Shown here piece after piece: positions 1,024-15,872 of a stretch of 20,000 nucleotides of DNA. Position numbers and translations under genes: made by a program. Location: positions 52,319 to 72,318 of IMG/VR virus record IMGVR_UViG_3300038335_000131, one strand, 5' to 3'. The notes beneath the pieces were generated by a model that saw only the letters and a list, made by a program, of their open reading frames with translations, was not told the origin of the DNA and did no database searches. The stretch comes from an uncultured virus (IMG/VR IMGVR_UViG_3300038335_000131). Its lineage: Duplodnaviria; Heunggongvirae; Uroviricota; Caudoviricetes. The first letter of the stretch is position 1. The number at the start of each line of letters is the position of its first letter.

Positions 1024-1487
1024 TACATATCCCCTTTTTGCTGTAGGTAGTTTCTCATGCCGTCGCGATAAAGAACGGCCCCATCGACTTGACCCGCCGC
1101 GATTCTCACCCAGGGACGACCTTTCATGCCCTTGACTGATCTGACCGGGTGCGATGCGCCGGGCCAGTAAAGCGCCTGTTTGCTTTTGGGCACGATCTTT
1201 GTTTTATGCGGGCCGTAAAGACCGGTGCCTTCGTGAACATAACCGGCATACGGCGCGGTGAAAGCCAGCGTGCCGCGTGTTCCGTCATCATTAACGCGGC
1301 TTGTGCGCGTACGCTTCATGTTGCTTGTTTTCTGCGGCGCGTCTTTGACCGAGATCGCTTCAACCGTGGTCAGCCAGTTGGTCATGCCCGCCCTTCGTGC
1401 GGGTTTCATGTCATCTCGAAGGTTTTTAAATAACCTTCCCGGATCTGGCTTTATGTTCATGTTTATTTCCATACGTTCACCATTCAC
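1023..1487 (-). CDS. HK97-gp10-like / Mu gpG-position virion morphogenesis protein
   Basis: Motifs APYAGYVHEGTG, KQALYW and VKGMKGRPWV, and position between F and I. The true start may be 1472 or 1460. Confidence 0.7.
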   Translation of the reverse strand: MNGERMEINMNIKPDPGRLFKNLRDDMKPARRAGMTNWLTTVEAISVKDAPQKTSNMKRTRTSRVNDDGTRGTLAFTAPYAGYVHEGTGLYGPHKTKIVPKSKQALYWPGASHPVRSVKGMKGRPWVRIAAGQVDGAVLYRDGMRNYLQQKGDM

Positions 1488-1494
1488 TTTTCAC
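1474..1494 (-). repeat. GTGAANN heptamer array (3 units) at the portal/next-gene junction
   Basis: Minus strand gtgaaaa gtgaatg gtgaacg. It contains the portal TGA (1491-1493) and the GTG at 1487. Confidence 0.75.
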
Positions 1495-3623
1495 GGTTTC
1501 ACGCGCTTAATCACGATTCCGTGACAATGCGGATGATACGGCGGCAATAAGCCCCTGGCCACGAGGGCCTCTGCATTGGCGACGGTCGGCGCAATTTTCT
1601 GGATGTCCTTCGTGTACTGATCAGGCGTCATGCCCGCCTGCTTGGTCATTGTGTTGTAGGCCGTGGCCACGCTGATGACTTTGCCGTTCATCGCCGCGCA
1701 GAAATCGCATTCCATTGTCGGCTCGTAAACTTCCAACTCGGTGATCCCGGCTTCGTGGAGCTGCGCCGTTGCCGCCCAGTTCTGTGCCCTGGTTACTGAC
1801 GTATCGATGATCCGGCTGACCTGAAAATCTTCCAGATCGGAAAGTTTCTGGCCGAAGAGATCCCGGAAGGCCTGATAGTTTTCCGGCAGGGCGCGTTTGA
1901 ATAATGCTTCGCCGTCCTGCAGGTAGCGCTCCGTCAAAAACGATTTGACGGTTTCGACCGCGTCCGGATTCTGCACCCACTTGGAAATATAAAAATTATC
2001 GACTTTGGACAGGAAGTTCATGGCGCGCAGATCCGGCCCGCCAAAATCGGTGATAGTTATATCGGCAAAGCGGAAATTCTTATAAATAATTTCGACGGCT
2101 TTTTTGATGACCGGCCTGTCCACTACGCTGAGGGCCGCGCCCAGGATGCTCTGTATGGAGGCGATGAATTCGGCCTGCGTGGGCGGCGTCTTCTGCTTTT
2201 GCAGATAGGATTCGATTTCGTCAAGAGCGCCGAAGCGGGCATTCTGCAGAGAAGGTTTGATGGCGGACATATAGGCGGCGACCCAGTCGGGCGTGCCTTC
2301 TTTGTTGACCATGATCTTATTGGCCTGGCTGATCGCGTCGGGCGCGGGATTAAAACCTTCACCCAGGGAAAAAGGCTGCGCGGCTTTTAGTGTTATTTCT
2401 CCCTTTTCCGGTACGGGTATGCCGAAGCGATCATGAATGTGGCTTGCGGGTATGCCCTCAAAACCAGCGTCCTTGACCAGCATGCCGTAGGTGCGGGCAA
2501 TCTTTTCGAGATCTTCGCCTTCTTCAAAATGCAGTTTGAATATCGGCACGCCTTTGCCTGGGCCGTAATTAAAAATGACCCAAGGTGCGAGCATCTTAAA
2601 TTTTATCGTCTTCTGTGCGGCTTTAGCGTCCGATTCTATGAGATCATGCCGCACGGCTTCCGATGCATTTTCTCCGCCCAGTTTGCCGGGTGTGCTTTCC
2701 GCGCTGCCGGTGTGGCCCAGCACGCCCTTGCTCATGGCCTTGTCGCAAAATTCTGCTAACCCTGAAAAAACACCGGTATCTCCCTTGCGTGCCGATTCTA
2801 CCAGTTCGATAATCGAATTATCCGAGATCACTGCGGCGGCATCGACGCCCAGGTTGAAGACGGCTTTTTTGAGCGCGTCCTTTTCGGGATCGCCAGCGCC
2901 GGGTTTGTATTTGCCCACGCGCATCGGAACGGCAAACAGTTCGTTAAATATGACCCAGTCCTTGATGTCGTAATTTTTAAACAGGTACATATAAGAGCAG
3001 GGCCGCAGTAATCCGCCGCGCGCCGTCGCTCCGGAGCGGGCCTTGTACTTGTGCAGGATGAATTTATTCGGCAGAAGATCTTCGCCCCATACAGGCGCTG
3101 CATCGGTGATCAGTTTAGGCATCTTTAACAAAGCGGCAGCAGAGTTGAAGGTGAAGCGCATCTGGTTGACCCATTCCGTCTCTTTAATCCATACTTGGCC
3201 TTCGGACATGTCCCACATGATTTCCTGAACGGAAAAGCCCTTACCGACGGCATCGAGCATGTCAAGAAGCATATCCTCAAAATTTTCCATGTACTCGATC
3301 ATCTGGATGGCGGCTTCGGCGATCTTCTTATCCTCGGCGGAATCGGATGCCGGGAGGATTTCCCACTCCAATCCGGTTATGGCCAGCTTTCTGGTTTGAA
3401 GAACGCCGCCGAGATGCAGGTCTTTTTCTTCCATTTCCATAAACAGTTCAGCCTGCCGCGTGATATCGCCCTGATCAGCCTCTTTGAAGATGGTCGCCAG
3501 GCGTTGCGGAGTCAGCCCCTGGGAGGGGTAAGAACCATACCGATCCCGGACGGTTTGAACCGCGACTTCTTCAAGAATCGGCTTATTTAATTTGATTTCT
3601 CGATTATATTGGTCGTACAGCAT
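1491..3623 (-). CDS. Portal protein (Mu gp29/DUF935-like) fused to a C-terminal Mu gpF/gp30-like head morphogenesis domain
   Basis: N-terminal motifs GLTPQRLATIFKEADQGD, MEEKDLHL, DMLDAVGKGFSVQEIMW and MSKGVLG. C-terminal motifs CDFCAAMNG and PPYHPHCHG. The gene follows the terminase. Confidence 0.88.
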   Translation of the reverse strand: MLYDQYNREIKLNKPILEEVAVQTVRDRYGSYPSQGLTPQRLATIFKEADQGDITRQAELFMEMEEKDLHLGGVLQTRKLAITGLEWEILPASDSAEDKKIAEAAIQMIEYMENFEDMLLDMLDAVGKGFSVQEIMWDMSEGQVWIKETEWVNQMRFTFNSAAALLKMPKLITDAAPVWGEDLLPNKFILHKYKARSGATARGGLLRPCSYMYLFKNYDIKDWVIFNELFAVPMRVGKYKPGAGDPEKDALKKAVFNLGVDAAAVISDNSIIELVESARKGDTGVFSGLAEFCDKAMSKGVLGHTGSAESTPGKLGGENASEAVRHDLIESDAKAAQKTIKFKMLAPWVIFNYGPGKGVPIFKLHFEEGEDLEKIARTYGMLVKDAGFEGIPASHIHDRFGIPVPEKGEITLKAAQPFSLGEGFNPAPDAISQANKIMVNKEGTPDWVAAYMSAIKPSLQNARFGALDEIESYLQKQKTPPTQAEFIASIQSILGAALSVVDRPVIKKAVEIIYKNFRFADITITDFGGPDLRAMNFLSKVDNFYISKWVQNPDAVETVKSFLTERYLQDGEALFKRALPENYQAFRDLFGQKLSDLEDFQVSRIIDTSVTRAQNWAATAQLHEAGITELEVYEPTMECDFCAAMNGKVISVATAYNTMTKQAGMTPDQYTKDIQKIAPTVANAEALVARGLLPPYHPHCHGIVIKRVKP

Positions 3624-3730
3624 GATTATTTAGCCCCTGCTTCGCGCGACGTTATGTTTATAAACAGTGTCAATGAAACTCCCGCCCCAATGGGAGGGCA
3701 AAACTGCTGTGGGGCATTTTTGCGGCCTCA

Positions 3731-5305
3731 TCAGAAAGCCCCCCTGCTAAAAAAACCGCTTTCATTTTTAGATTCGTCATCAATATCTCTTCCCGATGCC
3801 CACCTGTTGGCAACCGTCTCGTATTCTACCGGCCCGCCGTTCCATTCCTGCCTCGTTGCAAAGCAGGCCATTGCACCGGCAATACCGGAATCGCCGTGGC
3901 GCTTTTTATTGTCCTTGCCCTTCTGCCGGATCTCTGGAAGTTTGGCGACTCCCTTAATGACTTTAAAGGCCCGGTGATCTTCGATGACATCAGCGTCTCT
4001 GGCCATCGTTATTGTCTGATCCTCAAATGCCGCTTTATAGGCGGGCATGTTTTCGCGGTACCATGCCTCGGTGATCATGACCTGCGCAATGCGTCCTTCG
4101 CCGTAACGCTGCATGGCGCGTTCCGCCAGATACTGGCCGTTGCCCCTGGCATCGAGCGCGCCGAACTGAAAGCGCGGCAGGCGATCGCAGATGTAATAGA
4201 GGATCTGCTCCTGCTGTTGGAACGGCATATTGCGCAGTTCGAGCTGAAAGAGTTCGCGCCAGTTGGCCTTCTGGTTTTCCAGCCAGAATTTCATGACGGT
4301 CAAATCGCCGGTGCGGGCAAAGTCCTCGCCGAAGACGGCATTTTGTTTTGAATCGATGCCAACAAGAAGAGGCTTTAGAATTTCCTCGCACCAATCGCTT
4401 ACCTCGGCATGACGGATATGATCGGGAAGCGCGCCAAAGGATGTCTGCTGTTCATAGCGGATCACCTGTATGTCGGCGCTGAGGCATTTCTCGATGACGG
4501 CGCGAGTAAGGAAAACGCCGGTGCCCTGGCTCGGTATGCAGAAAAGTTCTTCATCCGCATCTTCGCCGTAGGAATCAATGATGCCCTGCCGCCATGTTAC
4601 CTCGGCCTCCGGCGACCATTGGCGTTTCAGAACTTCGCAGATACGTTTATAAAGTCCGTCTTGCAGGGCTTCATCAAACGTCACGCGATGGAGGCTGTAA
4701 GGTTTCTTGCCCGCCCGGATATCCTGGATAACGGAGTTGAATTCGTTGCTGTCGCCGAAGTGTGTGGAGATAACGCGAACCTGACCGCCCCACATAAGCA
4801 ATGCCATTGCCGCTTTCAGGAGGCCCGGCAGATCGTCATGGAAGGCCGCTTCGTCGATAACCACACGGCCCTGCTTGCCGCGCAGGTTTGTCGGCCTGCT
4901 GGAGAGAGCTGTAATGCGCCAGCCGGATTCAAAGGTGATTTTATAGGCAAGGATCTTCTGTTCTTTGACAATGCCCTGGTCATCTTCGTCCGGTTCTTCA
5001 TATTCATTAATGGATGATACAGCCATATTATAGGCGCGCGCCCAATTGGCGCAATCGTTGATAAATTCCAGCGCCATGTCTTTGGTGTAGCCGATGTACC
5101 AGACGTTGCGCTTTTCGCCGTTGCCTTTCTGTGATGCGTAAAGGGTATCGTCAGCGGCCTCGGCCCAGGAGATGCCGACACGCCGGGATTTTTCTATGAA
5201 CTTGACATCGGCCTGATCCGCCACCCATCGTTGCTGATAGGGCAGGAGGATGCCGGTTGAACTGCGCGCCTGATCAAATTCGTTTTGATTGTTTTCTTTA
5301 TCCAC
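3731..5305 (-). CDS. terL: Terminase large subunit (Mu gp28-like)
   Basis: LLPYQQRW, Walker A-like EKSRRVGISW, Walker B VVIDEAAFH, nuclease motifs GEDFARTGD and HGDSGIA. Confidence 0.95.
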   Translation of the reverse strand: MDKENNQNEFDQARSSTGILLPYQQRWVADQADVKFIEKSRRVGISWAEAADDTLYASQKGNGEKRNVWYIGYTKDMALEFINDCANWARAYNMAVSSINEYEEPDEDDQGIVKEQKILAYKITFESGWRITALSSRPTNLRGKQGRVVIDEAAFHDDLPGLLKAAMALLMWGGQVRVISTHFGDSNEFNSVIQDIRAGKKPYSLHRVTFDEALQDGLYKRICEVLKRQWSPEAEVTWRQGIIDSYGEDADEELFCIPSQGTGVFLTRAVIEKCLSADIQVIRYEQQTSFGALPDHIRHAEVSDWCEEILKPLLVGIDSKQNAVFGEDFARTGDLTVMKFWLENQKANWRELFQLELRNMPFQQQEQILYYICDRLPRFQFGALDARGNGQYLAERAMQRYGEGRIAQVMITEAWYRENMPAYKAAFEDQTITMARDADVIEDHRAFKVIKGVAKLPEIRQKGKDNKKRHGDSGIAGAMACFATRQEWNGGPVEYETVANRWASGRDIDDESKNESGFFSRGAF

Positions 5306-5306
5306 T

Positions 5307-5762
5307 TTAAACTATCCCCAAAATACGCCGCGAAATATCTCTTGCGTCAGCATCCGACATGCCGCCTTTCTTGACGGCTTTGGCTACTTCCGCCGCTGCC
5401 GCATTAACTTTATCTCTGAACAGGCCGTTGCTCTCGGCCTGTTTGAATTTAACGACTAACGATCCCAGCTTTGTGAGACTATCCATCAGAGCGCTGTCAA
5501 TCGCGCCGGGTTGTCTCTCTTCGGCGTGGGTCAACTCCCGTTCCAGGAGGGCTTCCATGCGTAGGCCGAAGTTTGCTTTGCGGGCGCGTGCCTTATCCCA
5601 TTCGTCGAGATCTTCACCCGGCTTTTTGGTCAGGCCTTTCCATGCGGATAGTGTCTGCCGGGATACGCCGAGTTCTGTTTCGATGGCGGAAAGGGATTTC
5701 CCGTCGATGAACATCTGCCGGGCAACGGGTTCAAGTTGTATCTTGATTCCTTTCTCAGCCAA
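5307..5762 (-). CDS. Putative terminase small subunit / Mu gp27-position HTH protein (DUF1804-like)
   Basis: N-terminal HTH (SLSAIETELGVSRQTLSAWK), WDKAR motif, C-terminal GMS...ILGI, directly upstream of terL. Confidence 0.7.
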   Translation of the reverse strand: MAEKGIKIQLEPVARQMFIDGKSLSAIETELGVSRQTLSAWKGLTKKPGEDLDEWDKARARKANFGLRMEALLERELTHAEERQPGAIDSALMDSLTKLGSLVVKFKQAESNGLFRDKVNAAAAEVAKAVKKGGMSDADARDISRRILGIV

Positions 5763-5763
5763 T

Positions 5764-6036
5764 TTAAAACCTCGTGAATAGTGAATAGTGAACGGTGAAA
5801 AAAATAATTATCAAAATCACCCATGCAGACACTGAAACAATTAACCGAGTGTTCCACTCAAAGTCATCCATCCAATCTAATAGAGCGTAAGCCTTGTCAC
5901 CTGCCCAATCCATTACCCAAAGCAGAGAATAAAAAAGGATTAACGGGAAAAAGACTAACGACAGAATCAATGATTTTAAAAGTTTAATGATTGCCTTTTT
6001 CTTTTTACTATTCACTTTTAACCCTTCACCATTCAC
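5764..6036 (-). CDS. Small AT-rich membrane protein (two hydrophobic segments); possible holin or moron
   Basis: Likely start is GTG 6036 (TAGTG overlap with the upstream stop, in frame with the track ORF). Basic N-terminus and two TM-like stretches. Confidence 0.55.
   Translation of the reverse strand: MNGEGLKVNSKKKKAIIKLLKSLILSLVFFPLILFYSLLWVMDWAGDKAYALLDWMDDFEWNTRLIVSVSAWVILIIIFFTVHYSLFTRF
5774..5801 (+). repeat. GTGAANN heptamer array (4 units), inverted relative to the other arrays
   Basis: gtgaata gtgaata gtgaacg gtgaaaa on the plus strand. Confidence 0.85.
6004..6036 (-). repeat. GTGAANN heptamer array (5 units, two degenerate)
   Basis: Plus-strand tttac/ttcac/ttaac/ttcac/ttcac at 6004, 6011, 6018, 6025 and 6032. 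Confidence 0.8.
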
Positions 6037-6281
6037 TAGCGAAGTTCCTCTTCCAGCCGCTTGATCTCCGCCTGTGCGGAAACCAGCTCCGCCCACTTTG
6101 ATTTCAGTTCATCAAACTGATTGTCCACGATATCGATCGGCAGATCTTCCGGACGCTTTAATGAACAATCAAGATTGATGCTGATTACCTGTGAGAGATT
6201 TTCAATCTCAATCCGTAATTGTTTTGCTTTATGCTCCAGATTCGTCAGTCTCACTTTGCGCATTGCGTTGAGTGTGCTCAT
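6036..6281 (-). CDS. Hypothetical coiled-coil protein
   Basis: Track ORF 6036..6314. The more likely start is ATG 6281 (MSTLNAMRK), just after the upstream stop. Confidence 0.7.
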   Translation of the reverse strand: MSTLNAMRKVRLTNLEHKAKQLRIEIENLSQVISINLDCSLKRPEDLPIDIVDNQFDELKSKWAELVSAQAEIKRLEEELR

Positions 6282-6285
6282 TAGA

Positions 6286-6627
6286 TCAACCTTCCACGGC
6301 TTCTTCGTCGACAAGCCGCATTGCTTTTTTCTTGCTGATTCTTATTACCGGGCAAAATTGATTTTGATTTATTGAGTCCTTACATTCGGTCATTGTCTGG
6401 ATGTTGAGAGTGACGATATCGCGCAGGTCATTCGTCACCGTGGCGAAGTCCTTGCATAAAGAGACATTGGATTTGTACATCTCGCGTTGCTCATTCATGT
6501 CCTTTTTGTATTGGTCAAGGACGGCCCACATCCGTTTGTTATCAGACCACCACAAAAAAATAACCAGGCCCACAGTCCCGAAATCGCCCAAAATTTTTAA
6601 AACGCTCATTATGCCCAGTTGATCCAC
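6286..6627 (-). CDS. Single-TM membrane protein with coiled-coil tail (holin-like or Mu gp25-position protein)
   Basis: Hydrophobic FGTVGLVIFLWW followed by a charged helical region. Position between the lysis genes and the terminase. Confidence 0.6.
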   Translation of the reverse strand: MDQLGIMSVLKILGDFGTVGLVIFLWWSDNKRMWAVLDQYKKDMNEQREMYKSNVSLCKDFATVTNDLRDIVTLNIQTMTECKDSINQNQFCPVIRISKKKAMRLVDEEAVEG

Positions 6628-6628
6628 G

Positions 6629-6859
6629 TCAGTCCCTCCGTTGTTCGTAATTTGTCTGACACCCTATGCACCGCTCCGCACCGGGTTTTGCTTTCAATCT
6701 TTTTTTCGGGATCGGCTCTCCGCAATCCTTACAATTCCTCTTTTTCACCTCGCCCTTGAGGGGAGAGGGTAAGGGAGAGTGTGATTTTTTAAAGTGCTCC
6801 TTCAGCGCGGTCTCCCGGAAAAGTGCGTCACGCTCCTGCGCCTGATCAAAGATGTCCAC
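6629..6859 (-). CDS. TraR/DksA-family C4 zinc-finger protein
   Basis: N-terminal DxxDxA (DIFDQA) and CKDCGEPIPKKRL...CIGCQ. Confidence 0.9.
   Translation of the reverse strand: MDIFDQAQERDALFRETALKEHFKKSHSPLPSPLKGEVKKRNCKDCGEPIPKKRLKAKPGAERCIGCQTNYEQRRD
6747..6784 (-). repeat. CCTC..GAGG REP-like palindrome inserted in frame in the TraR-like gene
   Basis: Minus strand tcacactctcccttaccctctcccctcaagggcgaggt encodes SHSPLPSPLKGE. Similar to the element at 12510-12544. Confidence 0.7.
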
Positions 6860-6866
6860 CCGCTTT

Positions 6867-7383: not shown

Positions 7384-7399
7384 GTTCTAAACTATCTCC

Positions 7400-8032
7400 T
7401 TAATCCACGCTCCGATTTATCCATGCGGAAAAAAATTGTCGCATCGCTGGCCGCCTCTGAATCAATGTAACGTAGAACTGCACACGCTTGATCCGTATCG
7501 AATTAAAGAACGCCACACGGCGTTCTCTTGCTTTTGTATAAGCATTTATCCAGGCTATTGTTTCAGGCGTGAATTTTGCGGGAATCGTCGGGATGGGATT
7601 GCCGGTCGCCCAGTATATTTCGATGAGAACCTTCGTGAGCAATCTCTCTGCCGCCGCGCCGCCCATGTTCACGGATTCGTCGCAGAGTTCATCGGCAATG
7701 CCCTGAGATTTTAATTTATCGAAATGAAATTTCAGCCAGTAGTCGCGCTCGTAGATCATGCGCGCCTGATCAGGTGTGAGATGTTTAATGATGAGTCCTT
7801 GCTTAAGCAGGCTTGTGCCGTATTGAGAAGCCGCTATGCCGTACTTTGTGCCCAGGAATCTGCCCTGGCCTTCTTTGCCGCCCGTCCAGTTGCCCGGATC
7901 GTGGATGTTATTGGAGTAGCCGCCCTCATGCGGGAGGATTGTGTTTTGCCACACCGGCAAAAAATCAGCCGCGAAAACCGGCTGAGCAATCAAAACGAAT
8001 ATGAATATAATTGTGGCGATGATTTTCCGCAT
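7400..8032 (-). CDS. Endolysin, glycoside hydrolase family 108, with N-terminal signal peptide
   Basis: HEGGYSNNIHDPGNWTGG...GTKYGI and IYERDYW motifs. GAGGTG SD precedes ATG 8032 (MRKIIATIIFIFVLIAQPVFA). Confidence 0.9.
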   Translation of the reverse strand: MRKIIATIIFIFVLIAQPVFAADFLPVWQNTILPHEGGYSNNIHDPGNWTGGKEGQGRFLGTKYGIAASQYGTSLLKQGLIIKHLTPDQARMIYERDYWLKFHFDKLKSQGIADELCDESVNMGGAAAERLLTKVLIEIYWATGNPIPTIPAKFTPETIAWINAYTKARERRVAFFNSIRIKRVQFYVTLIQRRPAMRQFFSAWINRSVD

Positions 8033-8074
8033 GTCTCGCACCTCGCTGGGTTCCTCCTCTATGCGCCTGCCGGT

Positions 8075-8104
8075 TGATCGGGCGGAATGGCGACCGCCCG
8101 ATCA
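8075..8104. promoter_or_regulatory. GC-rich hairpin in the leader of the lysis/late operon
   Basis: tgatcgggcgg-aatggcga-ccgcccgatca forms an 11-bp perfect stem with no U-tract. Confidence 0.5.
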
Positions 8105-8199
8105 GTTCCGGCAAGCTATAGCGAGGAGATGGTCATGTCTGGCTTACGACATTAAAGGATTGTTAAACGGCGGGCTACCAAAGCACTTGAGAAAATGGC

Positions 8200-8236
8200 A
8201 AAAGAAAACCCCTCTCTCGCGCGTGCGAGGAGGGGC
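8200..8236 (-). terminator. Rho-independent terminator closing the early/middle operon
   Basis: Minus strand gcccctcctcgc-acgc-gcgagagagggg followed by ttttctttt. Confidence 0.75.
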
Positions 8237-8265
8237 TGGGAAGGTTTGAAAATAATTATAATGTA

Positions 8266-8451
8266 TTATTTATTAGTTCTATTTTCCGTAGTTAATAAGC
8301 GAGCCAGTTGTTGTAACCCGTTTACGATATCTACGGTGTCATTTGTTATATTGAATTTCTGTGATGCGAGGTAACCGTCTTGCAACATAATCACTATAGT
8401 GAATCCTCCATGACGATCGTCTTCTACTGTTATATTATTTAAAGTGCTCAT
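8266..8451 (-). CDS. Small AT-rich hypothetical protein
   Basis: 61-aa ORF with a strong SD (GAGGAGG) right after the mor-like stop. Confidence 0.65.
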   Translation of the reverse strand: MSTLNNITVEDDRHGGFTIVIMLQDGYLASQKFNITNDTVDIVNGLQQLARLLTTENRTNK

Positions 8452-8463
8452 GAGACCTCCTCT

Positions 8464-8769
8464 TTATTCAAACAACTTACCTTGCTGTAATTTCCCGCGT
8501 AAAATATCACGGATGCGCGTCTCCGTCAAGCCGTAACGCCGCGCCAGTTCCAGATGGTTGAATCCGGTGAACTCTTTGCGGATCCGTTCATCGCGTTTAT
8601 CCATGAGCAGGCCGTCGAGTTTGCGGAAATAAAATCGCGTGCCGCCGAGGTACTCACTAAGGCTCAGTGTTGCCTCAACGCCGATGATTTCCGCGATGTC
8701 CTGGTAACATTCAGGGAGACTTTCGGTGGTCATCTCGGCAGCGATTTCTTTTAGCCATTCACCTTTCAC
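8464..8769 (-). CDS. mor: Mor/C-family transcription activator
   Basis: LSEYLGGTRFYF, RDERIRKEFTGFNHLELARRYGLTETRIRDIL. Positioned just before the late genes. Confidence 0.88.
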   Translation of the reverse strand: MKGEWLKEIAAEMTTESLPECYQDIAEIIGVEATLSLSEYLGGTRFYFRKLDGLLMDKRDERIRKEFTGFNHLELARRYGLTETRIRDILRGKLQQGKLFE

Positions 8770-8783
8770 TATTCACCCTTCAC
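8758..8783 (-). repeat. GTGAANN heptamer array (4 units) at the gemA/mor junction
   Basis: ttcac at 8758, 8765, 8772 and 8779. It contains the gemA TAG overlapping the mor GTG at 8769. Confidence 0.85.
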
Positions 8784-9266
8784 GGTTTGATGATCCAGCA
8801 TTTTTTTCAGTCCTTCTATAACGGTCGAGGCTTCCCAGTCTTTTGTGATGCGTTCTATTCTGTAAAACTTTTTAATCCAGTGATGAAAGCCATCTTCGAC
8901 ACGCCACTTTATTTGTCCGGCCAGGGCGTCGATCATATCAAGCTGTTCTCTCGACGGCATGACAACAACATTTTCCGGACGATCCTTGCGGGGCATGGAT
9001 CGGAAATCCTGAAAGGCGTTTGTTCCTCGTGTATATTTTTTTCGCCTGGGAATTTTGAAGCCTAATGTTTTGAAATGATCGATCAACTTCGATGCCTGAT
9101 GATAATTCAGATCCGTGCATGATGATGCCTTGCATTGAAGCCACAGAATGTCCCTGTATATCTGATCGGATAAACCGAGATTGCTTACTGCTGTATGAAT
9201 TATCTTGATTTGCAACGGTTCGATTTTTTTAACGGGCCGTTCTATTTTCACACCGGTATTAATCAT
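8769..9266 (-). CDS. gemA: GemA / Mu gp16 (DUF1018) family regulator
   Basis: IHTAVSNLGLSDQIYRDIL...SSCTDL...LIDHFKTLGF and C-terminal ASTVIEGLKKM. Confidence 0.85.
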   Translation of the reverse strand: MINTGVKIERPVKKIEPLQIKIIHTAVSNLGLSDQIYRDILWLQCKASSCTDLNYHQASKLIDHFKTLGFKIPRRKKYTRGTNAFQDFRSMPRKDRPENVVVMPSREQLDMIDALAGQIKWRVEDGFHHWIKKFYRIERITKDWEASTVIEGLKKMLDHQTVKGE

Positions 9267-10313: not shown

Positions 10314-10315
10314 TG

Positions 10316-10453
10316 TTATTTCTCCTCACATTTTTTATCCAGCCATTGACAACTAACGCCTGCTATCTGCCAGGCTTTTCTGATGATCGTCAGCGGAAGG
10401 CTGACAACAAAACAAACTATGATTATCCAGCCGATTAATATTTTTTTGATCAT
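10316..10453 (-). CDS. Small membrane protein (45 aa)
   Basis: ATG 10453 overlaps the upstream TGA (ATGA). MIKKILIGWIIIVCFVVSLPL is a hydrophobic helix. Confidence 0.55.
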   Translation of the reverse strand: MIKKILIGWIIIVCFVVSLPLTIIRKAWQIAGVSCQWLDKKCEEK

Positions 10454-10734
10454 GATATTTTCCCTTCGCTTTCTCCTGGATTCCGGCCTTCGCCGGAATG
10501 ACACACTTTATTTGGTAAAAAAAACTTGTATGCCAATATCTTTTCGCGTGGTTCATTAATAGCCTCCGATATATGAGCAAGTAGAAATTTACCTGCTTTC
10601 GCAAGGCCAAAAATAATTACTCCAATTACCAGTAAGGTAATCGCGATCAGGAAAATAGTAATTGTCATCAAAAAAAACATTTTAGCGACCAATGTCACCG
10701 CCTGACCATAATCAACCATTACAATGCCTTCCAT
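10450..10734 (-). CDS. Membrane protein whose C-terminus contains a translated palindrome
   Basis: AAGGAGG SD upstream, long TM segment, and CHSGEGRNP encoded by the element at 10477-10502. Confidence 0.65.
   Translation of the reverse strand: MEGIVMVDYGQAVTLVAKMFFLMTITIFLIAITLLVIGVIIFGLAKAGKFLLAHISEAINEPREKILAYKFFLPNKVCHSGEGRNPGESEGKIS
10477..10502 (-). repeat. GTCATTCC..GGAATCCA palindrome (CGTC-type REP / dRS3-like), copy 1
   Basis: Plus strand tggattccggccttcgccggaatgac. Confidence 0.85.
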
Positions 10735-10747
10735 AATTCCCTCCTTT

Positions 10748-10924
10748 TTAAACTTCGTAGTCTTCGCATCCTTTTTTTTCTCCCGGTTTGGGTATTGATT
10801 CCGGGAAAAACTTTTGTTTTTTTAAACAATACGCCCATCGCCAAACGTGCGGTTCATGCCGCCATCCATAGTGCGCGCATGTTGCGCAGATCCTCTCCAG
10901 TGGCGCGCTCAGTTCAGGACTCAT
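10748..10924 (-). CDS. Small Cys-rich protein (58 aa), below the ORF-track cutoff
   Basis: MSPELSAPLERICATCAHYGWRHEPHVWRWAYCLKKQKFFPESIPKPGEKKGCEDYEV. ATGA overlap with the upstream stop, and it fills the gap exactly. Confidence 0.7.
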   Translation of the reverse strand: MSPELSAPLERICATCAHYGWRHEPHVWRWAYCLKKQKFFPESIPKPGEKKGCEDYEV

Positions 10925-11142
10925 TTAAATGCACCGAGTGTACCTATAATTAACGCGATGCATGGCAGGTGTTTGTCCAACCAGGCCATAATGCGGCGCA
11001 GGTGGCGGGGCGGATATTTAACTTCTGCATCGCAACAAGTTTCAATTGAGAAAAGAATCCGACAATTATTTGAATATTGCGGATCGTGTTGCATGCACGA
11101 ATCTTTTGTACATATCGGTTCGCTAAAAATTAACTTCTTCAT
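10921..11142 (-). CDS. Small Cys-rich protein with C-terminal hydrophobic segment (73 aa)
   Basis: AGGAG lies 8 nt before ATG 11142 (MKKLIFSEPIC...). The track's longer start would overlap the upstream gene. Confidence 0.65.
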   Translation of the reverse strand: MKKLIFSEPICTKDSCMQHDPQYSNNCRILFSIETCCDAEVKYPPRHLRRIMAWLDKHLPCIALIIGTLGAFK

Positions 11143-11154
11143 GTTTTTATCTCC

Positions 11155-11180
11155 TGGATTCCCGCCTGCGCGGGAATGAC
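11155..11180 (-). repeat. GTCATTCC..GGAATCCA palindrome, copy 2 (intergenic, fused to an SD)
   Basis: Plus strand tggattcccgcctgcgcgggaatgac. Confidence 0.9.
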
Positions 11181-11183
11181 AAA

Positions 11184-11363
11184 TTATTTTTCCCGGCACT
11201 TTTTCCAGCCGCCATAACCGTAATCACTTTTATATTTTATTTCGCAGTCCGCGAAATCCCATCCCGCCATCGCGCAAGCGTCACGTACGGTCGCAGCGCG
11301 GTCTTCCCACCATTCGTTTGTTTTTGTATTTCTGATTCGATATACTTGTTTTGCTTTTACCAT
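11184..11363 (-). CDS. Small hypothetical protein (59 aa), below the ORF-track cutoff
   Basis: MVKAKQVYRIRNTKTNEWWEDRAATVRDACAMAGWDFADCEIKYKSDYGYGGWKKCREK. It fills the gap after gam. Confidence 0.7.
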   Translation of the reverse strand: MVKAKQVYRIRNTKTNEWWEDRAATVRDACAMAGWDFADCEIKYKSDYGYGGWKKCREK

Positions 11364-11402
11364 TTACCATTCACCCTTCACCCTTCACTTTTCACTCTTC
11401 AC
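11356..11402 (-). repeat. GTGAANN heptamer array (7 units) at the 3' end of gam
   Basis: Plus-strand tttac/ttcac at 11356, 11363, 11370, 11377, 11384, 11391 and 11398. Confidence 0.9.
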
Positions 11403-11879
11403 GGTGTATTCAAATTCCTCTTTCGGTTTCCGCTCCGCGCCGATGAGCACGAGTTTGGCGTCCGGCCACTTTTCTATTTTGTTGCGGTCGAGCGATTCGA
11501 CGATCTTAATAACATCAATGAATTTGTTTTCCTTGCAGGCTGCCAATGCTGTTTTGGGAATGCTGACATGATCGCCTTCGTTACGGATCAGTGAGCCATG
11601 CGGCAGATTGACAACGTCGGTACCGTCAAAAAGGACTCCTTTGTTTCTCTTCATTAACGTGGTGAGTTCCTTTTCCAGCGCGCTTTTGTCGTTACGCAAC
11701 GCATCGAGAAACTCTTTATAGGGCAACAACACTGCTTCCATTTCGGCGTTCGCCTTTGCTTCTAAATCAGTTATGCGTTCATTGATGTGTTTCACAAGAA
11801 GGAGCTTTTCATTTGCTTCTTCCTGGATTCCCGCCTTCGCGGGAATGACACTTTTCACATTTCTCTTTCCACTCTTCAC
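11385..11879 (-). CDS. gam: Mu Gam-like host-nuclease inhibitor
   Basis: Long N-terminal coiled coil, then LF...VNLPHGSL and IKIVESLDRNKI...IGAERKPKEEF. Position downstream of the ATPase. Confidence 0.8.
   Translation of the reverse strand: MKSGKRNVKSVIPAKAGIQEEANEKLLLVKHINERITDLEAKANAEMEAVLLPYKEFLDALRNDKSALEKELTTLMKRNKGVLFDGTDVVNLPHGSLIRNEGDHVSIPKTALAACKENKFIDVIKIVESLDRNKIEKWPDAKLVLIGAERKPKEEFEYTVKSEK
11824..11849 (-). repeat. GTCATTCC..GGAATCCA palindrome, copy 3, translated as VIPAKAGIQ in Gam
   Basis: Plus strand tggattcccgccttcgcgggaatgac. Confidence 0.9.
11854..11879 (-). repeat. Degenerate heptamer array (4 units) forming the gam 5' end
   Basis: Minus strand gtgaaga gtggaaa gagaaat gtgaaaa with period 7. 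Confidence 0.65.
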
Positions 11880-11881
11880 GA

Positions 11882-12277
11882 TTATGTTGCCTCCATTTCA
11901 AGTTGAAGTTGTCCGAGATAGGCGGGCAGAGAAACTTTTTCCGCGAGTGAGTTTTGTTTGAGGATGATCAGTGCCTTGATTTTCCGTTTGCGCAGGTAGT
12001 CAGTATATTCACTGCCCGCAGCGGGTATGTAGTATCCGCCATCGTTCTGAGAGGAGGATGAACATATCGCAACGCCTTCATCCCGCAGGGCCGTGATTAA
12101 TGTCCGCAGGGCGCGGGTGTCGTTGATCTTATCGTTCCAGGGACGATCAAAGACGATCTCATAAAGCGCGGTCATACTGATGGCGTTAATTTTACCGACG
12201 TGGTTAAACATTTCCGACTGCAAACGGCTCCTGTTCTCAGATGTATCGATTTCTCTGCTTTTTTCTTTTTCAATCAT
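11882..12277 (-). CDS. Winged-helix DNA-binding protein
   Basis: RALRTLITALRDEGVAICSSS...GGYYI wHTH pattern, with AAGGAGG SD upstream. Confidence 0.75.
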   Translation of the reverse strand: MIEKEKSREIDTSENRSRLQSEMFNHVGKINAISMTALYEIVFDRPWNDKINDTRALRTLITALRDEGVAICSSSSQNDGGYYIPAAGSEYTDYLRKRKIKALIILKQNSLAEKVSLPAYLGQLQLEMEAT

Positions 12278-12326
12278 TTTGTGCCTCCTTTAAGATCTCA
12301 TCTCCTCGCAAAGATTTAATCTTAAT

Positions 12327-12353
12327 GCGGCGCGTTCGGGGAACGCACCCTAC
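12327..12353 (-). repeat. GTAG-tagged REP-like palindrome
   Basis: Minus strand GTAG-ggtgcgttc-ccc-gaacgcgcc-gc. Confidence 0.65.
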
Positions 12354-12505
12354 CTCGTGAATATCCTCAGGCAGATCGGCCCGAAATGGAGCACCGCAAT
12401 GATGATGACGGCCCAGCACAGGATTTCCATCGACCATTTATACAAAGGCACGCGCCTTTTTTTTATCGGCATTTTCTCAATGTACGGTACAAAGTTTTCA
12501 ATCAT
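12350..12505 (-). CDS. Small single-TM protein (51 aa), below the ORF-track cutoff
   Basis: MIENFVPYIEKMPIKKRRVPLYKWSMEILCWAVIIIAVLHFGPICLRIFTR, with GGGGGTG 5 nt upstream of the ATG. Confidence 0.65.
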   Translation of the reverse strand: MIENFVPYIEKMPIKKRRVPLYKWSMEILCWAVIIIAVLHFGPICLRIFTR

Positions 12506-12509
12506 GTTT

Positions 12510-12544
12510 TCACCCCCACCTGGCCTCCCCCCTCAAGGGGGAGG
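12510..12544 (+). repeat. CCTC..GAGG REP-like palindrome
   Basis: tcacccccacctggcctcccccctcaagggggagg, similar to the element inside the TraR-like gene. Confidence 0.7.
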
Positions 12545-12546
12545 AA

Positions 12547-12579
12547 CTAATCCTCTAATCCGTCTAAACTTCTAATCCT
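12547..12579. repeat. Octamer-type tandem repeat (ctaatcct x about 4)
   Basis: ctaatcct ctaatccgt ctaaactt ctaatcct, just downstream of the ATPase stop. Confidence 0.7.
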
Positions 12580-12585
12580 CTTTCC

Positions 12586-13842
12586 CTAAATCGCCATGAC
12601 GACGTCTGCCGTGACTTTCTTTTCTCCCATTTCAAATGCCAGGTTCATGGCCCGCGCGGCGTAGTTATTGACGATCAGCGGATAGGCGTGTGATACGGTT
12701 TTATCGCGCCGGTCTTTGGTTGTCAGTCGGCGGCTCAGCGCGGCAAAGGCGTTATCATCGAAAATGTCTTCGATCTTCACGTTGATGCGTTTGAATTTCA
12801 GTTTTAAATATTCTTTCGTATTGCCGTTGAGGCCCTTGATTTCCGCCGTCTGTATTCTGCGGATCACTTCGCGCATTTCGATGTGCGCCTGCTCATTGAA
12901 AAGGTTTTTCAGTTCTGTCTGGCCCACCAGGATGATGCCCAAAAGTTTTCTGTAGCCGTCTTCCATTTCGGAAAAGCGTTTTAAATATTTGAGTGTGTTG
13001 GTGTTCAGATCGTGCGCTTCCTCAATAATAAGGACGGCCCTGAAATTCTGCTTTGCCCTCTCCAGCAGAAGTTTGTGCACCTGGCGGGATTTTGACTCTA
13101 AAGTTCTGGCCGGTTTTTGTTCCGACAGATCCATGATGATGGCGTCGCAAATACTCGATGAGTTGACTCTTGTTTTATCGATCATCTTGGGGAAAATTAC
13201 GATGGTGTCGCCGTCCTTGTTTAGCTGCTCAATGACCTTGCGGCGTATAACCGATTTGCCGCTGCCGACCTCGCCGATGACGGCGAGAAATCCCGCGTGC
13301 CGCGCTGTGTCCAGCATTGCCGCTTCGATGTAACGATGTTCTTCGCTCATGAAAATGTCCGAATCCTTTTGAATGTCGTCAATAAAAGGGTTCCTGAATA
13401 TTTTAAAATGTTTCATTGCTTCCTGATCTATCATCTCGACCTCCACGCTATTGATTAATTGTTCAGGGTTTCCCGGCACGATTGCCGCTATCCGTCTTGT
13501 CGCCCACGTTCTGTCGCTCCGTCCTGCCGGAGCAACTGCGCGCAAATCCTTGCCCAGCGGCTGCCAGATGTCTTCAATTTTCATCTGCCGTTCGATCAGC
13601 CACTGCATGGCTCGCGGGTTGGCTGATATCTCCGCTTCTACGATTGCTTTAAAATCCAGCCGCTCTTTCGGCATGTATCCGCGATTGAACGTGAGGTTGA
13701 TCGAGGCGCGGCTTAATTTCGTAGCCTTGCCGATCAGCGTCTGACTGATGCCGCACTCCACGCACACTTCTTTTAAAATGATTGGCTTGAAATCCATCTC
13801 GTAGGCTGATTGTTCGTTTACTTTTGGTCTCGCCATTGCCAT
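12586..13842 (-). CDS. Transposition ATPase (MuB-equivalent, ExeA-like AAA) with N-terminal HTH
   Basis: Walker A GEVGSGKS, Walker B LIIEEAH, ILVGQTEL and YPL motifs. Follows the transposase. Confidence 0.9.
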   Translation of the reverse strand: MAMARPKVNEQSAYEMDFKPIILKEVCVECGISQTLIGKATKLSRASINLTFNRGYMPKERLDFKAIVEAEISANPRAMQWLIERQMKIEDIWQPLGKDLRAVAPAGRSDRTWATRRIAAIVPGNPEQLINSVEVEMIDQEAMKHFKIFRNPFIDDIQKDSDIFMSEEHRYIEAAMLDTARHAGFLAVIGEVGSGKSVIRRKVIEQLNKDGDTIVIFPKMIDKTRVNSSSICDAIIMDLSEQKPARTLESKSRQVHKLLLERAKQNFRAVLIIEEAHDLNTNTLKYLKRFSEMEDGYRKLLGIILVGQTELKNLFNEQAHIEMREVIRRIQTAEIKGLNGNTKEYLKLKFKRINVKIEDIFDDNAFAALSRRLTTKDRRDKTVSHAYPLIVNNYAARAMNLAFEMGEKKVTADVVMAI

Positions 13843-13854
13843 CTCCTCTTTTCT

Positions 13855-13880
13855 GTCATTCCCGCCTGCGCGGGAATCCA
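13855..13880 (+). repeat. GTCATTCC..GGAATCCA palindrome, copy 4 (opposite orientation), between the transposase and ATPase genes
   Basis: Plus strand gtcattcccgcctgcgcgggaatcca. Confidence 0.9.
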
Positions 13881-13887
13881 GTATTTT

Positions 13888-15696
13888 TTATCCTGTCGCT
13901 TCCATTGTTTCTTGACCCTTGACCCATGACCCTTCAATAATCGCCCCGATCACCTCCTCCGCTTCGTTTACTGTGATGCCTTGCTCGTATTTTTCGCGCA
14001 GTTCGTTATTCAGCGCCGGTGTGATGACACCGATCTCCGCGCGTAATTGCTTTAATAATTCGGTAAAGGATATGCGCCGCGTGGCAATGCCGCGCGAAAT
14101 TTGGGATGCATCCACCGGCGTTGCTGTGTTAACCGGCAATTCAGGTTCTTTGATTTCCAGCGGTGTGCCTTTGCGTTCGATAAATTCGATGTTGCCGACT
14201 TTATCGGCGTGATTTCCGAAGACTTTAAGCGGCGACTCAAAGCCGACAGGCGGGGCCACGGCCATGCGTTTGTCGCCGGTGCCTTTCCATGTGATGCCCC
14301 AACTTTCAGCTTTGCCTTCCATTTCTGTTTTTGCTTTTTGCGTTTCGGTATACTTCGGTGTTTTGTATTCGCCGTAGGGCGTACCATTGCTCACTCTTCC
14401 ATAGATGTCTTCAGGAATAGGCTCACACAGCCAGACGTTGCCGTTAAAATGTACTTCGACATTCGGGTATTCATAAGGATGCCGTACAACGTTGACTTTC
14501 TGGCCAGCAGCCATTGAATCAGGAATCTGATAGTGGCGATTGTCCACGCTGATCAGCCGCGATCCGTCCGCTATCCTGGTGATCGTCGGCTCTTTGATGA
14601 GCAGGCGGTAAAGTTCCTCTTCCGGGCACAGCCGCAGTTGCTGGGCCGTGATGTTTGACCACATGTTTGATCGGGGAGCGACGCCGCGCATTTTCTTTTC
14701 GGCATTGACCCATATGCACCAATCCAGCGCCCAGCGGTTAAGTTCATCCAATCCTGATGGACGCTGAAATTTGAGGCCGGATTCAAAGGTATTGATGTAA
14801 TGCATCAGGCCTTCGATTGCGCCCTTCGCGCGCGGGTTGCCCGGCATGTGCAGTTGCAGATCGATTCTCAGGGCTTCCATGAGCGCCTGATTGGATTTTG
14901 CCGTGAGGATGGAACCTCGGTCGGATACGAGTATGAAGGGAACGCCGTGGAATTTGTATTGGCCGAGCTTCGCGCCGGATTCGCCGTTCCACGTTTTTTT
15001 TATAAGGTCGTCTTTGGGCCGCATGGCGCGGAAAAGAAAATCGGAGCCGTCCGCCGCACGTTCGCCGGACGCGTAATAATAAAGGAAGAAAAAAGCCCCG
15101 GAGCAGTGATCAACCACGGCGTAGCGGAGGAGTTCTTTTTTGATTGGTTTGTCGCGCAGGGTCTTGACGATTTTGTTTTTGTACATGGTCATTTGGAGGT
15201 CGCGCTCACCCATGCCTTTTTTATCATCGAGAAAATATTGAAGGCAGTTGGTAACATCGAATTGCCAGACCTGATTCGGATGCTCGGAAAGCAGGCGCTG
15301 GTGCGGCGATGGCCGGAGTAAGTCTTTTGCCGATATTTGCTCTTCCCGGAGCCTCGCGACAAACCGGTTGGTGGAAACACCGCCCGTCTCAATCCCGGAA
15401 TCTTCCAGAATCATTTTTGCGTAGCAGGCTGGCAGGGGGATTTCGTTGGATGTGCGTCTGGATGTCAGCATAAGCGTTGATGCGTTGAGAAGAATCTCAC
15501 GCGATGCGCTTGATTGACCTTTTGTTTTGCGCTCCTTCCGAAACCGAATCCCCCGCGCCGCCGCGTAACGATTGATGCTGGCCGGTGTGACACCGTAATG
15601 CGCTGCTAGTTTCTTTGTTTTTTGTGCAGCTTCTTTGGGCGTGAGGCCGCGCAGGCTTGATTCTACGTGGTTTAAAATGGTTTCCGATACTGCCAT
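13888..15696 (-). CDS. DDE transposase (MuA-equivalent)
   Basis: HPNQVWQFD, VVDHCSG, LVSDRGS and NPRAKGAIE catalytic-core motifs, plus an N-terminal HTH. Confidence 0.93.
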   Translation of the reverse strand: MAVSETILNHVESSLRGLTPKEAAQKTKKLAAHYGVTPASINRYAAARGIRFRKERKTKGQSSASREILLNASTLMLTSRRTSNEIPLPACYAKMILEDSGIETGGVSTNRFVARLREEQISAKDLLRPSPHQRLLSEHPNQVWQFDVTNCLQYFLDDKKGMGERDLQMTMYKNKIVKTLRDKPIKKELLRYAVVDHCSGAFFFLYYYASGERAADGSDFLFRAMRPKDDLIKKTWNGESGAKLGQYKFHGVPFILVSDRGSILTAKSNQALMEALRIDLQLHMPGNPRAKGAIEGLMHYINTFESGLKFQRPSGLDELNRWALDWCIWVNAEKKMRGVAPRSNMWSNITAQQLRLCPEEELYRLLIKEPTITRIADGSRLISVDNRHYQIPDSMAAGQKVNVVRHPYEYPNVEVHFNGNVWLCEPIPEDIYGRVSNGTPYGEYKTPKYTETQKAKTEMEGKAESWGITWKGTGDKRMAVAPPVGFESPLKVFGNHADKVGNIEFIERKGTPLEIKEPELPVNTATPVDASQISRGIATRRISFTELLKQLRAEIGVITPALNNELREKYEQGITVNEAEEVIGAIIEGSWVKGQETMEATG

Positions 15697-15697
15697 A

Positions 15698-15847
15698 TCA
15701 TTTACTCCGAGTGATTATTCGCGCTGGTTTTTTTCCATGCTTTTTTAATTCCGCAATGGCGTTATTTACGCTGAAGCCAGGCCAAACATGTTTTAATTCC
15801 CGGTTGCGGAAATCTAGGATCACTATATGAGGTCTTCTTTTTCCCAT
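15698..15847 (-). CDS. Small basic protein (49 aa), below the ORF-track cutoff
   Basis: MGKRRPHIVILDFRNRELKHVWPGFSVNNAIAELKKHGKKPARIITRSK. It ends 1 nt before the transposase ATG. Confidence 0.6.
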   Translation of the reverse strand: MGKRRPHIVILDFRNRELKHVWPGFSVNNAIAELKKHGKKPARIITRSK

Positions 15848-15872
15848 TCACTATTCACCCTTCACTGTTCAC
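15845..15872 (-). repeat. GTGAANN heptamer array (4 units) at a gene junction
   Basis: Minus strand gtgaaca gtgaagg gtgaata gtgaatg. The first unit gives the TGA stop and the last gives the ATG. Confidence 0.9.

Follow-up and report, generated by a model that had tools for sequence, protein, structure and literature searches.

The terminal 20,000 nucleotides (nt) of the 72,318-bp viral record IMGVR_UViG_3300038335_000131 (positions 52,319 to 72,318; hereafter the window) contain seven tandem arrays of the heptanucleotide GTGAANN. PHROG matches identify the window as the part of a Mu-like transposable phage, so far uncultured, that carries its early, middle and head genes. The arrays are C-poor and purine-rich, usually consist of four units and lie exactly at the cistron boundaries of polycistronic operons. 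Heptanucleotide junction repeats have been seen in cyanobacteria, Xanthomonas, Beggiatoaceae and other phyla, where their function is not established. We tentatively propose, at a little less than even confidence, that the GTGAANN arrays are this phage lineage's version of such repeats and work as a modular intercistronic linker. The proposal draws on the position, strand bias and frame use of the arrays, the conservation of their cores, a GTG inside an array at the Mor gene, the interchange of arrays with other junction fillers and the predicted folding of inverted pairs. The arrays are not a dedicated stop/restart device.

In the proposed mechanism, a sense array (GTGAA on the gene strand) would close the upstream reading frame, whichever frame arrives. 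Units preceded by G would present GGUGA, which may pair with the 3' end of 16S rRNA and hold the ribosome, and a GUG or AUG 3-7 nt further on could let the terminating ribosome restart the next gene, giving translational coupling. A sense array followed by an antisense array would form a bumpy stem-loop, maybe an RNA processing or stabilising element. Such a linker would be dispensable, and exchangeable with octamer arrays, with dRS3-like hairpins ending AGGAG or with plain overlap of stop and start.

Arrays in the window and in the contig

A first-pass annotation of the window had listed seven GTGAANN arrays and suggested that they act as frame-independent terminate-and-reinitiate linkers, or as scars or targets of gene shuffling. 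All seven are present, with boundaries at most 2 nt from those it gave. The three-unit pattern with up to three mismatches has 24 matches in the window, far above 200 dinucleotide-preserving shuffles of the same sequence (mean 0.58, maximum 4). As annotated, GTGAA reads on the gene (minus) strand in six arrays and on the plus strand in one:

1476..1494, minus strand: sense array of 3 units, between the portal gene and a gene for a 154-residue (154-aa) neck/virion-morphogenesis-like protein
5774..5799, plus strand: antisense array of 4 units (TTCAC on the mRNA), at the 3' end of the orphan open reading frame (ORF) ORF90, before the small-terminase-like gene
6004..6036, minus strand: sense array of 5 units (3 exact), abutting the TAG (6038-6036) of a 92-aa gene (orf92)
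8758..8783, minus strand: sense array of 4 units, between a GemA-like gene and Mor
11356..11402, minus strand: sense array of 7 units (5 exact), holding the Gam TGA and the ATG of a 59-aa ORF
11854..11879, minus strand: degenerate sense array of 4 units (2 exact), directly after the TAA of a 131-aa gene and followed by a dRS3-like hairpin
15847..15872, minus strand: sense array of 4 units, holding the TGA of a 336-aa gene and the ATG of a 49-aa ORF

The annotation had also proposed a shuffle-controlled scan of the full contig. Three further arrays lie to the left of the window, at contig positions 51155-51180 (plus strand), 51191-51209 (minus) and 52215-52233 (plus), and all 10 arrays of the 72,318-bp contig fall within 17 kb of the phage (contig 51,155-68,190), with none in the remaining 55 kb. 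It had further remarked that no array lies deep inside a gene. For sense copies this absence is forced, because they have stops in every frame.

Other short tandem repeats occur nearby. A 7-nt repeat of 3.4 copies (13911-13934, minus strand) lies in the final codons of the MuA-like gene, and a 9-nt repeat of 2.4 copies (15872-15893, minus strand) encodes the lysine-rich tail of the 336-aa gene and runs directly into its array.

Array architecture across the phage family

Family statistics come from six contigs, namely the phage under study (G000) and five relatives (G001-G005; 8.6-36.9 kb, examined whole). The relatives were obtained by scanning viral contigs for the array pattern, and the six contigs were partly picked for carrying arrays. 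A single-protein search for related loci with the GemA-like protein returned one match, the identical 40-kb contig described below.

With at most one mismatch, the three-unit pattern has 21, 8, 11, 15 and 2 matches in G001-G005, 57 in all against 0 for the reversed pattern. With all genes drawn left to right, 32 arrays in the six contigs are sense and 8 are antisense. Four units are found in 27 of these 40 arrays, three in 7, five in 4, and six and seven in 1 each; the array between Gam and the next gene has 7 units in G000, 5 in G001 and 4 in G002. The five core positions are near-invariant within arrays, partly through the array definition used. Spacer position N6 is T, G or A about equally and C in 5 of 122 spacers, while N7 is a purine (A or G) in 103 of 122. 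Between orthologous arrays (two arrays in three phages, with flanking genes 66-86% identical by BLAST), differences affect 2 of 120 core positions and 10 of 36 spacer positions (Fisher p = 7e-6), in a comparison whose pairs are non-independent and in which the cores themselves served to recognise the arrays.

Predicted structure is slightly lower in single sense arrays than in random segments (unpaired 0.53 vs 0.45, p = 0.012), an effect too small to sustain the idea of an unstructured standby site. A G-quadruplex reading was also rejected: GG occurs in just 18 of 122 spacers, and most arrays are without four G-tracts. No Rfam family reached its gathering score in the window or in the 12.4 kb to its left.

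Stops are supplied in all three frames

An upstream ORF of at least 60 aa terminates within the array at 19 of the 32 sense arrays, and 16 of these ORFs are at least 100 aa long. The annotation had argued that three units place both TGA and GTG in every frame since 7 mod 3 = 1. The arithmetic is correct, and upstream genes do enter the arrays in all three frames, using the TGA at array offset 1, 8 or 15 in 4, 4 and 5 cases. In six further cases the stop is a TAG arising from a TA spacer. The frame-independent stop is thus not merely arithmetic but is actually used by upstream genes, whose proteins acquire array-written C-termini such as …VKGE, …VKSEK and …VNGEQ.

In the window, every upstream stop that had been assigned to an array can be read in the sequence. 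The portal TGA (1493-1491) lies in the first unit of its array, the TAG of the GemA-like gene (8771-8769) inside array 8758..8783 and the Gam TGA inside array 11402-11356. The first unit of array 15872-15847 contains the TGA that ends the 336-aa gene, and the TAG at 6038-6036 abuts the array that follows it.

Starts within and next to arrays

A start codon lies inside the array or within 10 nt past it at 19 of 32 sense arrays, a count that is partly automatic in so far as the start opens an ORF, because arrays carry GTG in every frame. The clearest individual case is the late activator Mor, where comparison supports a start at the GTG within the array. In the window this codon is GTG 8769-8767 in array 8758..8783, and the first four Mor codons would be array-derived. 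In G000, G001 and G002 the frame from the GTG at array offset 14 reads V(K/N)(G/S)(E/G)WLKEIAAE…, with the residues WLKEIAAE, which precede an internal ATG, conserved in all three. The internal ATG is ATA in G002, which leaves the array GTG as the only start candidate there in the 60 nt that follow the array. In G004 the Mor homolog, only ~30% identical, begins M-VNSE inside an array of its own, and the PHROG profile of Mor aligns from residue 11 onward. By this comparison, the start codon and first residues of Mor are demonstrably array-written. The GemA stop and the Mor start overlap as TAGTG in two phages and as GTGA in a third; across the junctions, stop-to-start distances run from -1 to about 24 nt.

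All 10 start-adjacent arrays, 4 of them at Mor orthologs, have GGTGA 3-7 nt upstream of the start. Its predicted duplex with the rRNA tail has an energy of -7.4 to -9.6 kcal/mol, vs -5.7 for AGGAG, calculated with a 13-nt E. coli-type 16S tail, which may differ from that of the host.

The remaining starts proposed by the annotation fared unequally. Its GTG at 8769 is the Mor start just described, and its ATGs at 11363 and 15847 open ORFs of 59 aa (ORF59) and 49 aa (ORF49). GTG 1487 is in frame with the gene after portal, but the conserved start of that gene is ATG 1472, which is kept in a relative and has GGTGA 4 nt before it. GTG 6036, together with GTG 6015, is a possible start of ORF90, and GTG 11879 a candidate start of gam.

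Different fillers at the same junctions

The same gene junction can be filled in different ways in different phages of the family:

orf92/TerS: sense array, 200-nt ORF90 and antisense array in G000; a hairpin of sense and antisense heptamers in G001; octamer array in G002; another hairpin in G004; bare TGATG in G005
portal/next gene: heptamer array in G000; octamer array in G001; TAAATG in G002
MuA/MuB: dRS3-like hairpin in G000; four-unit heptamer array in G001; one GTGAA, a hairpin and one GTGAA in G002
GemA/Mor: array in G000, G001, G002 and G004; hairpin of a C-run and a G-run in G005
Gam/next gene: arrays in G000 (7 units), G001 (5 units) and G002 (4 units); another repeat in G004
endolysin/orf140: canonical AAGGAG spacer in G000; array in G005

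Three kinds of filler other than the heptamer arrays recur, and the following copies lie in the phage under study:

12547..12581, minus strand: octamer array of ~4 copies of a AGGATTAG-type unit, just after the MuB-like stop
12524..12544, minus strand: hairpin of a second type, with a C-run and a G-run on either side of a short loop, following the octamer array
11827-11846, 11158-11177 and 10480-10499, minus strand, and inverted at 13858-13877: dRS3-like hairpins of 20 bp, assigned by pattern
contig 42378-42397 and 45401-45420: further dRS3-like copies, assigned by pattern

The octamer unit, of GATTAGAG or AGGATTAG type, contains GAGGA and, because 8 mod 3 = 2, brings TAG into all three frames over three units. 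It fills orf92/TerS in G002 and takes the place of the heptamer array between portal and the next gene (gpG) in G001, at the same site and between conserved flanks. That two arrays alike in properties but unrelated in sequence replace each other is the strongest indirect evidence that they act as linkers.

The dRS3-like hairpin, read on the gene strand, usually ends AGGA(G) ahead of the next start. All six phage copies fit the general form ATTCCC-N8-GGGAAT if ATTCCG/CGGAAT arms are allowed in one of them, and five of the six fit the published consensus of the Nf1 subtype; the likeness is one of pattern only. A 25-nt version of the dRS3 pattern was found in at least 132 stretches of viral contigs. 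Among the matches listed, phased GTGAA units stand upstream of 3 of 157 viral dRS3-type copies, and several copies are preceded by other short-period arrays. The assemblies of four sequencing runs break at dRS3-like copies. The C-run/G-run hairpin also follows arrays in G001 and G004 and, as listed, fills GemA/Mor in G005.

Inverted pairs of arrays

At seven sense arrays an antisense array follows within 260 nt downstream. The pair before the major head gene (contig 51209-51155) has a predicted fold of -24.1 kcal/mol (z = -6.75), and four inverted pairs in relatives have folds of -19.6 to -29.0 kcal/mol (z = -4.6 to -5.2). Pairing is confined to the cores, which makes the stems bumpy. The arrays that flank ORF90 (6036-6004 with 5774-5799) pair in the minimum-free-energy fold of the 281-nt segment (z = -2.6). 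The weaker half-pair after the protease gene (contig 52250-52215) folds no better than shuffles (z = -0.35), and neither does the local segment 5840-5765 (z = 0.01). A Rho-independent terminator was considered for the pair at 51209-51155 and rejected, as its U-run lies ~9 nt past the stem and a consensus scan flags none of the pairs.

How far the linker reading reaches

A number of observations weigh against the proposed linker. Relatives manage the same junctions without arrays. A hairpin element lies within 45 nt downstream of 9 of 32 sense arrays, and four other sense arrays, which lack both a hairpin and an antisense partner, show a Shine-Dalgarno-like motif in the 40 nt that follow; in such cases (for example MuA/MuB and the junction after the 336-aa gene in G001, or position 9041 in G002) the array need not supply the start. 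The sense/antisense stems include neither stop nor start codons. At the junctions that follow the protease gene and precede the major head gene, TAA stops lie upstream of the arrays, and the stem is followed by a canonical AAGGAGG-ATG. Units preceded by A (44%) pair weakly with the E. coli-type rRNA tail (-3.9 to -4.7 kcal/mol). ORF90, which may start at an array, has no relative among 5.8 billion proteins. To these are added the partly automatic count of starts and the limits of the core-to-spacer comparison given above.

Outside the phage family the picture is looser still. A same-strand ORF of at least 100 aa ends at the array in 25 of 66 viral and 36 of 96 genomic loci, and the array lies in an open frame of the opposite strand in 28 of 66 and 43 of 96. 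The strand bias that the annotation had asked about is found within the family (32 sense vs 8 antisense), but GTGAA arrays follow no strict sense-strand rule outside it. Its stop/restart linker fares similarly: the boundary position, the all-frame stops, the Mor start and GGTGA in 10 of 10 cases stand, whereas hairpins, antisense stems and array-free junctions speak against it as a general rule.

A broader version of the linker proposal, which we regard as possible though doubtful, is that transposable phages of this lineage maintain a small kit of junction modules, interchangeable and indifferent to frame, which would be copied from one junction to another, slotting genes in regardless of frame and seeding short ORFs. 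The modules would be the GTGAANN heptamer arrays, the GATTAGAG-type octamer arrays and the dRS3-like hairpin-plus-AGGAG cassettes. Heptamer and octamer arrays each combine all-frame stops with a ribosome-pairing motif, and ORF49, ORF59 and ORF90 start in or at an array. If such a kit existed, the unexplained heptamer repeats of bacteria would gain a function as portable linkers that carry a stop, a ribosome site and a start.

The family is an unusually clean comparative system, in which the same junction is seen filled by tandem heptamers or octamers, by a hairpin or by a canonical ribosome-binding spacer, or left as a bare overlap. If translational coupling holds, the arrays would be a natural frame-independent linker that bears on how phage genes are inserted into operons and might serve as a synthetic-biology part. 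If it does not, the repeats would be passengers tolerated where they are harmless.

Alternative explanations

The linker and the three explanations that follow are not mutually exclusive. The arrays may be neutral or selfish repeats that grow by 7-nt duplication or slippage, are seeded at G-TGA-A stops and are tolerated at junctions, with stops, GTG and GGTGA as by-products. We consider this unlikely, though the wider occurrence of the repeats is in its favour. The exact four-unit pattern occurs in at least 126 stretches of viral contigs and in at least 121 stretches in genomes of many phyla. Among the matches listed, proteins of this phage family are encoded at 21 of 126 viral loci (tblastn), and proteins shared with this phage at 0 of 121 genomic loci. 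Many genomic GTGAA loci are inverted pairs or have neighbouring arrays built from a different 7-nt unit. For two control cores matched in composition, the counts are 113 and 119 viral stretches, vs at least 126 for GTGAA, the first control partly re-finding GTGAAAA arrays. Heptamer arrays are thus common in themselves, and these counts do not mark GTGAA out as special overall. Mixed spacers are, however, more frequent in GTGAA blocks (107 of 177 viral and 83 of 161 genomic) than in blocks of the controls (50 of 136 and 38 of 157), with overlapping loci counted twice.

Within the family, neutral growth is also favoured by the array-free state of the same junctions, by unit numbers that vary among relatives (7, 5 and 4), and by lone GTGAA units at native stops (the MuA end in G002) and in the C-terminal codons of portal. 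Other features of the family arrays do not sit well with it. Slippage would homogenise spacers too, yet cores are kept while spacers vary (2 of 120 vs 10 of 36 positions). The preference for four units (27 of 40), the 32:8 strand bias and the avoidance of C in spacers likewise speak against it, as do the GemA/Mor arrays in phages whose Mor proteins are only ~30% identical. In addition, contigs assembled from four DNA runs show no insertion or deletion in the arrays, and hence no change of unit number of the kind that phase variation at a contingency locus would bring, although such consensus contigs drop rare variants.

Alternatively, the arrays may be recombination linkers, short shared boundary sequences that let related phages swap or insert genes in register. 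Three small ORFs at arrays fit this reading. ORF49 starts in the array after the 336-aa gene and ORF59 in the array after Gam, and the relatives lack both at these positions. Between the sense and the antisense array lies ORF90 (5764..6036, minus strand), which encodes a putative small membrane protein and is missing from orf92/TerS in G001, G002, G004 and G005. An inserted gene in G004 is bounded by a direct repeat that comprises the first array unit and the final ~40 nt of the homolog of the 336-aa gene; this suggests that the extra ORFs there were inserted through junction duplication. This region (G004 ~3600-4470, between the 336-aa homolog and MuA) holds several extra small ORFs, one of them cysteine-rich and zinc-ribbon-like. 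Of 18 ends of homology between G000 and G001 in the window, 3 lie within 10 nt of an array, vs ~0.3 expected by area, and 2 lie at hairpins; exchange at loci adjacent to repeat arrays has been proposed for the neisserial dRS3 repeats (PMC3898611).

The alignment of relatives that the annotation had proposed thus places breakpoints at arrays more often than expected by area, but most of the remaining homology ends are at gene boundaries as well, and no enrichment over gene junctions in general could be demonstrated. Array-free junctions are equally mosaic in G002 and G004, and five-base cores with variable spacers make poor substrates for homologous recombination. We hold a role as recombination linkers to be improbable. 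A joint between 12574 and 15850, seen in all 4 runs, was discounted as repeat cross-talk since its sides are only 20-23 nt long.

Slightly less probable again is that the arrays are sites for an RNA- or single-strand-binding factor with a footprint of ~7 nt per subunit (cold-shock, S1 or KH type), or for an antisense RNA with TTCAC repeats, which would jointly control the translation or stability of many junctions: the fixed 7-nt phase, invariant 5-nt core, free spacers, preferred copy number of four and slightly lower structure of single sense arrays (unpaired 0.53 vs 0.45, p = 0.012) would suit it, and the same idea has been put forward for TAACTGA repeats (PMC4679880), but unrelated octamers and hairpins replace heptamers at the same site, contrary to a core-specific reader, no Rfam family matches, and no candidate protein is encoded beside the arrays or co-varies with them, no co-occurrence test having been run.

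The phage and its contig

The gene layout below, which is on the minus strand except for the divergent repressor, is based on PHROG matches, with genes called by ORF heuristics without a gene finder. The label GemA-like was taken from the first-pass annotation and from the position of the gene directly before Mor.

1-1023, minus strand: head protease (PHROG match)
1491-3623, minus strand: portal (PHROG match)
3731-5305, minus strand: large terminase (PHROG match)
5307-5762, minus strand: small-terminase-like DNA-binding protein, TerS (PHROG match)
6629-6859, minus strand: DksA-like zinc finger (PHROG match)
7400-8041, minus strand: endolysin (PHROG match)
8464-8769, minus strand: Mor-type late activator (PHROG match)
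8769-9266, minus strand: GemA-like protein, 165 aa (phrog_286, a family without assigned function)
11385-11879, minus strand: Gam (PHROG match)
12586-13842, minus strand: MuB-like transposition protein (PHROG match)
13888-15696, minus strand: MuA-like transposition protein (PHROG match)
18269-18880, plus strand: divergent repressor

An identical viral contig of 40,065 bp starts at contig position 32,396, and because of this start the phage is taken to extend from ~32.4 to 72.3 kb. Its DNA comes from four groundwater metagenome runs of one study, and the transposases of the nearest cultured phages (Pseudomonas B3/D3112-like) are at most 31% identical to its own. In each of the four runs the right-end contig ends 142-143 nt past the end of the window (20000), in keeping with variable DNA attached to a genome end of the Mu type. 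A GC-rich stem with a T-run behind it (~8195-8235, minus strand) lies after a 61-aa gene (8266-8451) and ~150 nt before the endolysin; it is probably a terminator that separates the middle from the late (lysis/head) transcription units.

Contig positions 1-32395, to the left of the phage, are a different phage-like region with 0 GTGAANN arrays. It encodes a 4,951-aa ORF with weak matches to Eco57I-methylase, SNF2 and helicase-C, as well as an SU10 adaptor, Big_2 and a pair of tail-collar proteins, of which one has an Mtd_N domain and is a possible target of a diversity-generating retroelement. Being phage-like, the region was rejected as a host control and serves as a control for neighbouring DNA only. 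The join of two phages in one record may be biological or an assembly artefact.

Comparison with known systems

Overlapping stop-start junctions (ATGA, TGATG, GTGA) allow coupling by termination and reinitiation. Compared with these ordinary junctions, the phage array multiplies the overlap motif in tandem and would serve any frame. GemA/Mor has the overlap geometry of translationally coupled junctions, and translation of Mor may depend on that of the gene upstream. Among heptamers, the STRR repeats of cyanobacteria form intergenic arrays, sometimes as inverted pairs, with units and hosts that differ from those of the phage; to our knowledge they have no link to starts or stops. Literature searches, with most subscription journals outside their coverage, found no description of GTGAANN arrays in phages.

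Neisserial intergenic mosaic elements (NIMEs) are chromosomal, span 200-2700 bp and consist of dRS3 and RS repeats (PMC3898611). They share with this phage junctions filled by mixed small repeat modules, including the 20-bp dRS3 pattern of the Nf1 subtype. Unlike the phage junctions, NIMEs are not tied to stop or start codons and show no heptamer arrays in the passages that describe them (PMC3898611).

In Cluster K mycobacteriophages, the start-associated sequences SAS and ESAS (Pope et al. 2011, PMC3203893) resemble the GTGAANN arrays in being phage-specific, in keeping one orientation and in occupying only part of the genome; they lie 3-7 bp before starts, as does GGTGA in the start-adjacent arrays. 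Both have a Shine-Dalgarno core, sometimes include the upstream stop and, in the account of SAS given there, are absent from surrounding DNA outside the family. However, the SAS is described as a single 13-bp motif without all-frame stops, whereas GTGAANN forms tandem arrays, many of which do not precede a start. The 17-bp inverted repeats of the ESAS pair poorly (PMC3203893), while inverted GTGAANN arrays are predicted to pair.

Xanthomonas and Nostoc carry heptamer repeats of the unit GGGNATC, whose G-tracts form G-quadruplexes (Rehm et al. 2015, PMC4692102). As described there, they lie, like the GTGAANN arrays, between co-oriented ORFs, within ~50 bp of the stop and on the sense strand, and both prefer four units. 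They differ in their G-runs: GGGNATC has at least three G per unit, and GTGAANN has GG in 18 of 122 spacers.

The nearest likeness in layout is to the TAACTGA heptamer repeats of marine Beggiatoaceae, some Cyanobacteria and Bacteroidetes, whose function is described as unsolved (MacGregor 2015, PMC4679880). They have been suggested to act in translation, and Csp, S1 and CsrA were named as candidate binders (PMC4679880). As far as that account describes them, TAACTGA and GTGAANN are both short sets of 7-nt tandem direct repeats, mostly intergenic, in forward orientation and just upstream of starts, and both bring stops into all three frames, sometimes overlapping the upstream stop. The TAACTGA unit resembles a Shine-Dalgarno sequence little and lacks a start codon, whereas GTGAANN offers GTG in all frames together with GGTGA; GTGAANN further differs in that two of its seven positions are free within an array, in its phage carrier and in its interchange with other fillers. 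The phage arrays have the traits of the TAACTGA type in their 3-7 units of 7 nt, their sense bias of 32:8 toward starts and their all-frame stops, but their unit is GTGAANN. They are thus the same kind of repeat, belonging to a different family.

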